The notes under the pieces: generated by a model | Told to the model about the DNA's origin: nothing | Databases searched by the model: none | Seen by the model: only the letters and a program-made list of their open reading frames with translations | Virus record (IMG/VR): IMGVR_UViG_2718217859_000007 | Length of the DNA stretch: 45,044 bases | Reading direction: 5' to 3' (one strand) | From: a virus | Lineage: Duplodnaviria > Heunggongvirae > Uroviricota > Caudoviricetes | Made by a program: the position numbers and the translations under genes | Shown: piece after piece, positions 35,581-36,409 of the stretch | Numbering within the stretch: position 1 is the stretch's first letter | How the letters are laid out: each line of letters opens with the position of its first letter

Positions 35581-36409
35581 GGTTTACCCCCTTGCTGACA
35601 GGTTTAACCTGTGCCCTGACGTGATTTACGTGACGGGCGAATTTCTGCTCCCACTGAACCTGCGTGAAAACCTTACCCTCCGCTGCCCAGTAGTCCCGAA
35701 AGGCGGCAAGTTCAGCAGGTGTAAATTCCGGCTCTGGCAGAGCCATCCCCCACAACGCAGCCCGTCGTCGAAAATCCGGCGACGGATGCCACCCATCGGT
35801 CATCGGAAATTTCCCGATGGGTTCGCTCAGGCCTTCCAGGTAATCAGGTTCCGCTGTCTGCAACGGCACACCATTCGCCTCACTGGTCGGAGCACTCTCG
35901 CGCGCGTTATGTGTGGGGTTTAATTCTTTATCTGTATCTTTATCTGTCGTGACTCGTCGTGACATGTCGTGACATATGCGTGACTCGTCGTGGCCCCCCT
36001 CATTCTGTTTTCGTAATTTTTCCCTCTCGCGCTGCGCTCTCTTGCGCTCTGCCGGGGATTTCGCGGTTTGAGAAACGTTACCGTTGTCCTCTTTCAGTAC
36101 CTGGCGTTTTTCCCATCCAGTGATTAAATCTCCATCAAGTACCCGCCCCTGCATTGCCTGTAAAATTGAATCAATTACTTCTTCCGTCACATCAAGCGCA
36201 CTTGCTAAATCTTCCGCCGTGACATCAATGTGACCACGTAGTGACACGCCGTGACATGTCGTGACATTTCGTGACGCGCTCACCAGAAGGTGGATATACA
36301 CAGCCATCACTGTTGCGATTGGCTGTCCTGACACCCTGGAAATTGTTCGCCACTTAGGATCATTTGGCATGTCATGCCATAATCTGAGCCAGGCGTTAGC
36401 CATACTCAC
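35369..36409 (-). CDS. replication initiator O-like (DUF1376-like N-terminus, DnaT-like C-terminal domain)
   Basis: 346 aa; N-terminus MANAWLRLWHDMPNDPKW; contains two iteron clusters; C-terminal FTPAELAAFRDYWAAEGKVFTQVQWEQKFARHV DnaT-like. Confidence 0.6.
   Translation of the reverse strand: MSMANAWLRLWHDMPNDPKWRTISRVSGQPIATVMAVYIHLLVSASRNVTTCHGVSLRGHIDVTAEDLASALDVTEEVIDSILQAMQGRVLDGDLITGWEKRQVLKEDNGNVSQTAKSPAERKRAQREREKLRKQNEGGHDESRICHDMSRRVTTDKDTDKELNPTHNARESAPTSEANGVPLQTAEPDYLEGLSEPIGKFPMTDGWHPSPDFRRRAALWGMALPEPEFTPAELAAFRDYWAAEGKVFTQVQWEQKFARHVNHVRAQVKPVSKGVNHAAAPGGTASRAVQEIRAAREQWERENGFIRDGNGLEAVGTHGGGLFEPLDPEERGRTFEALDCTDWRDD
35944..35993. repeat. iteron cluster 1 (five ~10-bp GTCGTGAC-type repeats)
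   Basis: TGTCGTGAC TCGTCGTGAC ATGTCGTGAC ATATGCGTGAC TCGTCGTGG at helical-turn spacing. Confidence 0.7.
36222..36290. repeat. iteron cluster 2 (six GTGAC repeats at 10-11 bp spacing)
   Basis: GCCGTGAC ATCAATGTGAC CACGTAGTGAC ACGCCGTGAC ATGTCGTGAC ATTTCGTGAC. Confidence 0.7.

Follow-up and report, generated by a model that had tools for sequence, protein, structure and literature searches.

A probable replication origin with two iteron arrays inside the initiator gene of an Escherichia coli lambdoid prophage

Background

Short direct repeats that recur once per turn of the DNA helix within the coding sequence of a replication initiator raise the question of whether they mark the site at which replication begins, or merely reflect the protein, the messenger or the transcription unit to which they belong. 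That an origin may lie inside the gene of its own initiator is well known from phage lambda, phage SPP1 and the RepA_N plasmids. The present locus is found in a stretch of 45,044 nucleotides (nt) of Caudoviricetes DNA (IMG/VR record IMGVR_UViG_2718217859_000007), which was analysed in its entirety and is termed the window below. A preliminary description of this DNA, prepared from the letters alone, had noticed two clusters of such repeats, here called arrays A and B, in a gene for an initiator likened to lambda O. Our analysis of the sequence indicates that this locus probably serves an E. coli lambdoid prophage as its origin of vegetative replication, placed within the gene that encodes the prophage's own initiator.

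Results and discussion

Two arrays of one short iteron

The repeat core common to the two arrays is GTCACG on the sense strand of the initiator gene, which is CGTGAC on the plus strand of the window. Array B comprises four exact plus-strand copies of CGTGAC beginning at 35948, 35958, 35968 and 35979, followed by a degenerate fifth copy, CGTGGC, at 35989-35994 (GCCACG on the sense strand), with copy-to-copy steps of 10, 10, 11 and 10 bp. Array A comprises six plus-strand copies of GTGAC beginning at 36219, 36230, 36241, 36251, 36261 and 36271, with steps of 11, 11, 10, 10 and 10 bp. The direct copies of both arrays keep a single orientation throughout, on the sense strand of the gene. Array B corresponds to nt 416-462 of the gene, and array A lies upstream of it by about 225 bp, or about 25 helical turns. 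A lone inverted copy of the core accompanies array A (Table 1) and recurs at the same relative position in the corresponding genes of O157 and of the phages Evi, Tritos, Marin, P7869 and pAEv1818. The five repeats of about 10 bp that the preliminary description placed at 35944-35993 are recovered here as array B. Its count of six repeats at 36222-36290 agrees with array A, the right-hand limit having been drawn too far out. Its further statements, that both clusters lie within the coding sequence of a replication initiator and that there are two separate arrays rather than one, hold for this minus-strand open reading frame (ORF), and the two-array layout is conserved across the initiator's relatives.

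When the whole window was searched for 5-mers that recur at intervals of 9-12 bp, the longest one-word runs were those of array A (six copies) and array B (four copies), formed by the same word; outside the arrays there were only two unrelated three-copy runs, of GTTCA near 27480 and CGAAG near 38730. The longest run obtained from 200 first-order Markov simulations had three copies in 113 cases and four in a single case, and never reached five or more. Tandem Repeats Finder likewise picks up both arrays, with a period of 10.

Constraint on the repeats at the nucleic acid level

The 10-11 bp period is not a multiple of three, and successive copies therefore fall in all three reading frames, giving rise to the dipeptides VT, C/G-H and SR; the 18-mer ATGTCACGACATGTCACG is present in both arrays, where its translation is NVTTCH (array A) or CHDMSR (array B). 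A codon test anchored on the protein motif was applied to 22 homologues from different genera with about 50-85% amino acid identity. Every synonymous site within the cores is frozen in these homologues, with the spacer codons free to vary: V47 is GTC in 22/22 (background 0.21), T48 is ACG in 22/22 (0.25), S44 is TCA in 21/22 (0.14), G57 is GGT in 22/22 (0.18), V61 is GTC in 22/22 (0.21) and T62 is ACG in 22/22 (0.25). As the period breaks the frame, the shared 18-mer is read in two frames and the synonymous sites of the cores are frozen, selection on the arrays is shown to act on the nucleic acid and not on the peptide. The alternative named in the preliminary description, namely a simple repeated peptide motif with third-position variation of which the DNA periodicity would be a by-product, could draw on the recurrence of the dipeptides VT, CH/GH and SR in both protein regions and on the high conservation of the loop ASRNVTRGHxDVT in close relatives, but is refuted by the frame and synonymous-site analysis and has next to no chance of being right: third positions in the cores are invariant where selection on the peptide would permit drift, both protein regions are loop or disordered in the structure model, and the peptides are wholly changed in lineages with another core.

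Conservation of the two-array layout

A scan limited to one genome per species yielded 80 loci encoding relatives of the initiator's N-terminal domain, 74 of which were analysed. Of these loci, 50 have array A (about nt 130-165 of the gene) together with array B (about nt 350-430), 18 have array B only, two have array A only and four have neither, so that 68 of the 74 have repeats at the position of array B. Cores derived independently for arrays A and B agree in at least 43 of the 50 two-array loci, and most of the non-agreeing loci show the same unit read at an offset. The cores fall into classes by lineage, including GTCACG, (C)GAACGC, GCAACG and GTAACG. GTCACG is kept in both arrays, at the same gene positions, in the E. 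coli phages Evi and Tritos, the Pseudomonas phages Marin and P7869 and the Aeromonas phage pAEv1818. In the Ralstonia phage Hennie, whose N-terminal domain is 36% identical, GCAACG stands at 130-182 and at 401-431, and both arrays have thus changed their core jointly. Comparison across the loci shows arrays A and B to co-vary over a broad initiator family. An inverted copy of the locus's own core lies no more than 85 nt away at 23 of the 50 two-array loci. The hosts of array-bearing loci range from Enterobacteria to Burkholderiales, Sphingomonads and Desulfovibrio, and the two-array layout is, to judge from these loci, recurrent in prophages of many Proteobacteria.

The same comparison shows the arrays to be associated exclusively with the N-terminal domain. 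P-like, YdaT-like, Cro-like and DnaT-like homologues were undetectable by tblastn, a method of limited sensitivity here, in 43 of the 50 two-array loci, and the YdaU protein of Rac-SA53, which has the same C-terminal half joined to a DUF1376 N-terminus, comes without GTCACG-type repeats. Both arrays in the window's lineage exceed those of Evi and Marin by exactly seven codons, equivalent to 21 bp and to two iterons (10 + 11), and copy number would therefore shift in steps that preserve the frame. A conserved helical phase between the arrays was also considered, and none was seen by eye: in the homologues the last A and last B iterons lie between 249 and 270 nt apart, and the spacing changes in roughly codon-sized steps.

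An A+T-rich tract beside array B

The preliminary description had suggested looking for an AT-rich element beside either cluster. Array A has no adjacent A+T tract, and array B is followed directly, in the sense direction, by a 29-bp tract of about 21% G+C, the G+C minimum of the initiator gene. Over the 68 loci with an array at this position, the 36 nt after the last B iteron have a mean A+T content of 0.67 versus 0.42 in the rest of the gene and a mean purine content of 0.78 versus 0.55, and their A+T content exceeds the locus's own background in 66 of the 68. No DnaA boxes, allowing up to one mismatch, were found in or near the initiator gene; a permissive-threshold Rfam scan of 35200-36600 returned no match; and a promoter and terminator scan found no promoter-like site in the arrays and only a weak stem beside the A+T tract nearby.

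Just past the tract, at 35897-35918, lies a G+C-rich element, CCCCACAC…CGCGCGCG, which encodes a Pro-rich motif. Four related loci (L005, L112, L162 and L169) have C-runs with complementary G-runs past their own A+T tracts, for example CCCCCCTTACCCCCCTGAGGGGGG in phage Marin. By analogy with the inverted repeat (GTCAGAG…CTCTGAC) to the right of the A-rich tract of ori-lambda, the G+C-rich element could serve as a boundary to unwinding at the DNA level.

Two relatives display other arrangements around a comparable tract. In ydaU of Rac-SA53 (locus L004, nt ~2075-2150, minus strand) a (GATACA)n tract and the C-terminal half are common with the window's initiator, and a different element, the inverted repeat TGTTCAAACA…TGTTTGAACA, stands upstream of the tract. 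In Caudoviricetes sp. ctOK67 (locus L008, gene nt 260-410) AACGC repeats occur at the array B position only and are followed by (GAGACA/GATACA)n; immediately before the initiator in this genome comes a 163-aa gene with the annotation 'chromosomal replication initiator protein dnaA'. To judge from ydaU, initiator families with different N-termini seem to attach binding sites of their own to one common module of unwinding tract and C-terminal half.

The initiator protein

Annotated homologues of the initiator begin at the ATG at 36403 (MANAW...), slightly inside the longest frame. The protein matches PHROG 1408/3729 'replication initiation protein' and, weakly, phrog_4880 'replisome organizer', and RefSeq names its homologues 'DnaT-like ssDNA-binding domain-containing protein' or 'phage replisome organizer'. 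It comprises three parts, namely an N-terminal winged-helix-like domain, a disordered linker, and a C-terminal half that contains a DnaT-like domain for single-stranded DNA (ssDNA) binding. The last of these supplies the sole Pfam match (DnaT DNA-binding domain, PF17948, 65.2 bits against a cut-off of 25). The NCBIfam DnaT equivalog NF002770 scores 95.9 bits against a cut-off of 201 and matches residues 193-278 only; this sub-cut-off score rules out full-length DnaT identity, the domain being DnaT-like and not DnaT itself. The N-terminus is a predicted winged helix of a DnaD/RepA_N-like kind; Pfam RepA_N and Phage_rep_org_N do not match the initiator, and a PDB sequence search with the family profile gave no meaningful match. 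The designation of the initiator as O-like in the preliminary description is apt for an analogue of O and fails for a homologue: no Pfam Phage_rep_O match was found at E<=0.01, the family's N-terminal alignment reached an hhalign probability of 0.1 against lambda O, and BLASTP returned E=2.6.

In the structure model array A encodes the loop of residues 44-62 (SRNVTTCHGVSLRGHIDVT), which connects helix 3 to helix 4 in the winged-helix domain and has low model confidence. Array B encodes residues ~137-153 of the linker, and together with the A+T tract it corresponds to residues 136-165, which are disordered in the model. As modelled, both arrays are placed where the protein tolerates a constraint imposed by the DNA, one in a loop and the other in a disordered segment.

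The gene shares 98% identity with a prophage gene on an E. coli chromosome. Its relatives were matched in 2587 of 5426 complete E. coli genomes, O157:H7 included, and a match covering at least 80% of the initiator gene in 657 complete E. coli genomes. Its C-terminal half is 92-94% identical to genes of Rac-SA53 and PPompW-type phages and its N-terminal half about 86% identical to those of Evi and Tritos, and the megablast match sets for the two halves overlap only at 35925-35945, inside the A+T tract. The initiator gene is by these matches a mosaic whose recombination joint lies in the tract; the iterons are therefore passed on together with the N-terminal domain, whereas the C-terminal half is passed on with the P-like gene.

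Alternative explanations

A function of the motifs in the initiator mRNA, as sites for a translational regulator or as structure, rather than as DNA sites, would accord with the position of all direct copies on the sense strand, and frozen synonymous sites alone do not separate selection on RNA from selection on DNA. Nevertheless, we give this explanation very little credence: direct repeats are unable to pair with one another, nothing in Rfam matches, the spacing of 10-11 nt fits the helical repeat of B-DNA, inverted copies on the other strand accompany array A at many of the two-array loci, and the conserved adjacent A+T-rich tract is typical origin anatomy.

Binding of the arrays by another protein, such as a host factor, a CII/YdaT-like protein or a repressor, that regulates transcription of the replication operon would make them something other than an origin. 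A YdaT-like gene does lie upstream in the loci of E. coli, Pseudomonas phage Marin and Aeromonas phage pAEv1818, and arrays within a transcribed gene could serve as roadblocks. Against this stand the spread of the arrays over the whole range of hosts listed above with lineage-specific cores, the Ralstonia phage Hennie locus with no annotated YdaT-like gene, and the failure to detect YdaT, Cro and P homologues in most two-array loci, which, given the limited sensitivity of tblastn, weakens the explanation. The only constant partner of the arrays is the N-terminal domain, whose own gene houses them, and we regard control by another protein as improbable.

The alternative that survives best confines the origin to array B and makes array A purely negative, acting by titration, handcuffing or roadblock autorepression in the manner of P1 incA or F incC. 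In P1 and F, a second iteron array beyond the minimal origin is a classical element of copy control: in P1 incC/incA and F ori2 incB/incC, one initiator binds two arrays of the same iteron, only one of which adjoins the unwinding element. The plasmid arrays flank the rep gene, their iterons are of 19-22 bp, and their control function is established. The present locus resembles these plasmids in having a second array of the same core about 225 bp from array B and away from the A+T tract, and differs from them in that both arrays lie inside the initiator gene and have short cores. As array B occurs alone at 18 of the 74 loci and only array B adjoins the tract, array A appears dispensable for the basic origin design, an accessory of a large subclade that stands outside the minimal design. 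The sequence gives no sign of the direction of its effect, though, a lytic phage origin less obviously needs copy control than does a plasmid, and a positive role would be equally consistent with the strict conservation that the array A core shows throughout most of the family. A purely negative array A is on balance unlikely, though it deserves to be taken seriously.

Several points weigh against an origin with two arrays read by its own initiator. The homologues share ancestry, so that the counts of loci are not counts of independent events; the frozen synonymous sites are equally compatible with constraint at the RNA level; the A+T tract of the window is short at 29 bp; the structure model has a mean predicted local distance difference test score (pLDDT) of only 68; and the role of array A is purely inferential. 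A comparison of CACG-class with AACG-class proteins found no specificity-determining residues outside the iteron-encoded loop: only the loop residues H58 and T62 discriminate, and the comparison is uninformative because the iterons themselves encode both. In the searchable literature we found no specific description of the origin of this initiator family, of GTCACG iterons or of DnaT-like phage initiators, although an earlier description is possible.

Proposed mode of initiation

Returning to the intragenic origin as the preferred interpretation, we infer that the iterons are in all likelihood the initiator's own binding sites, bound by its N-terminal domain one per helical turn; the co-variation of the two arrays and their exclusive association with that domain support this indirectly. 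Copies of the domain on successive GTCACG iterons would then align on one face of the DNA and build an oligomeric complex. Array B and the adjacent A+T/purine-rich (GATAMA)n tract would form the origin core, with binding of the initiator destabilising the tract. The C-terminal half would bring in P-DnaB at the opened duplex, and the DnaT-like ssDNA-binding domain is a candidate holder of the unwound strand. Transcription of the initiator gene would pass through both arrays, as at ori-lambda. Array A would be a second binding array for the same initiator and most likely cooperates with array B by looping over the ~225 bp between them, which may either enlarge the initiation complex or throttle it in the manner of a control array. 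A stronger version, which we put forward as a doubtful possibility, is a 'split' intragenic origin, with array A in the DNA-binding-domain loop, array B beside the tract, and an initiator-bridged loop between them mechanistically required for licensing or for self-limiting firing. If true, this would be a distinct architecture and not a lambda-type origin with spare sites, and part of the sequence of a DNA-binding domain would be dictated by the very sites that the domain recognises.

Comparison with known origins

The lambda iterons occupy nt 349-433 of O and are followed by an A-rich tract, array B standing at the same relative position in its gene. In both systems the origin lies inside the initiator gene between the segments for the N- and C-terminal domains, an A-rich tract with strand asymmetry comes after the iterons in the sense direction, and the gene of a P-family loader is immediately downstream. 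The lambda division of labour, in which origin specificity resides in the N-terminal half and the partnership with P in the C-terminal half, is implied here by the mosaic joint in the tract. The lambdoid arrangement proposed in the preliminary description is therefore borne out in the mid-gene position, the A-rich tract and the P-like loader, and not in the type of iteron: the core here is of 6-7 bp, direct and repeated every 10-11 bp in 5 + 6 copies, unlike the four dyad-symmetric lambda units of 18-19 bp that are about 20-24 bp apart. The present initiator also differs from O in lacking detectable homology to it and in its DnaT-like C-terminus, and the locus differs from ori-lambda in having a second array inside the coding region for the DNA-binding domain.

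In the RepA_N replicons, such as those of pSK41 and pTZ2162 RepA, the origin repeats likewise lie mid-rep, in DNA coding for a linker (PMC5703833). In pSK41 the N-terminal domain of the RepA_N protein binds four Rep boxes central in rep, and the ori-encoded linker is dispensable (PMC5703833). As a rule, RepA_N iterons form semi-palindromes around a poly-A tract (PMC7145576), in contrast to the short direct repeats, the two arrays, and the Gram-negative prophage setting with a P-type loader seen here; the initiator, as noted, does not match RepA_N.

The oriL of SPP1 is embedded in gene 38 and consists of repeats bound by G38P with an adjacent A+T-rich unwinding element (PMC5737612). The likeness extends to nomenclature, in that databases call the present initiator family 'phage replisome organizer', although the match to phrog_4880 is weak, the sequence similarity is marginal and Pfam Phage_rep_org_N is not matched. 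The AB boxes of SPP1 are another kind of repeat, and its second G38P site, oriR, is far off in the genome, whereas the second array here is in the same gene.

Gene neighbourhood

The region surrounding the initiator gene is a lambdoid immunity and replication region (Table 1). The start of the P-like loader gene was placed as in the O157 homologue annotated in RefSeq, giving an 8-bp overlap with the end of the initiator gene, and genes of the DUF1627 and DUF977 families follow next after the loader.

Table 1. Coordinates of the arrays, the initiator and the flanking genes in the 45,044-nt window
Feature	Position	Strand	Remarks
Array A	36218..36276	-	six direct iterons, core GTCAC(G), 10-11 bp spacing
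Lone inverted core copy	36186..36190	+	~30 bp beyond array A in the sense direction
Array B, presumed origin-core iterons	35948..35994	-	4 exact GTCACG + 1 degenerate GCCACG, 10-11 bp spacing
A+T-rich strand-asymmetric tract, presumed DNA-unwinding element	35919..35947		(GATAMA)n on the sense strand; GATAAAGATACAGATAAAGAATTAAA
Replication initiator gene	35369..36409	-	ORF; 346 aa from GTG 36409
Predicted N-terminal winged-helix domain, presumed iteron-binding	36104..36403	-	aa 1-100
DnaT-like ssDNA-binding domain, C-terminal half	35609..35809	-	aa 201-267; PF17948
Lambda-P-like helicase loader	34915..35376	-	Phage_lambda_P 59.5 bits; PHROG 109 'P-like helicase loader'
CII/YdaT-like gene	36475-36900	-	between the Cro-like gene and the initiator
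Cro-like gene	36884-37159	-	leftward of the CI-like gene
CI-like gene	37267-37767	+	helix-turn-helix (HTH) regulator, 166 aa

The longest P-like ORF has 221 aa from 35580 and overlaps the initiator by 212 nt in another frame (35369-35580, minus strand). The RefSeq homologues are 153-aa products whose start overlaps the initiator stop by 8 bp (locus L001, 1047-1508). PHROG 15931, with 482 positions, matches both the initiator and the P-like protein over their full lengths; some phage records thus seem to contain an initiator-P product that is fused or frameshifted.

On the plus strand at 37267-38266 the HTH regulator gene is the first of three. The second, at 37785-37976, encodes a 63-aa antitoxin of the PaaA2 family (Pfam PaaA2, 81.7 bits), and the third, at 37976-38266, a 96-aa ParE toxin (66.5 bits). 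As this block looks like a paaR2-paaA2-parE2-type toxin-antitoxin module, the CI-like gene may be the regulator of that module and not the prophage repressor. Elsewhere in the window an ORF at 16677-18293 (538 aa) contains a 138-bp tandem repeat of 3.5 copies with 81% identity at 16824-17310 (minus strand), which encodes units of about 46 aa (…GDQIMALPEAKGREQLAQMLAGQPGMTVEQAKAFLAAAPAAS…) in the C-terminal half of the protein; the sequence of the N-terminal half suggests a prohead protease or scaffold protein.

Conclusions

The novelty of this locus is one of combination: an initiator other than O, in which a predicted DnaD-like winged helix is combined with a DnaT-like domain, is paired with a P-type loader, and very short direct iterons, one per helical turn, are accompanied by a conserved second array in the coding sequence of the DNA-binding domain. 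The analysis provides a precise prediction of the origin for a replicon that is common in E. coli, and a rule for finding origins in related prophages, namely to look for one array near nt 130-165 of the gene and another near nt 350-430, and for a purine-rich A+T tract after them. It also points to a case of dual coding, in which the constraint on binding sites would hold synonymous positions fixed and mould a loop in the same domain that presumably reads the sites. Iteron steps of 21 bp, equal to two iterons or seven codons, would account for the length polymorphism of these initiator proteins. Finally, co-resident prophages sharing the GTCACG specificity could cross-activate one another or compete for initiator, and such cross-talk would bear on the induction of Shiga-toxin-associated prophage communities.

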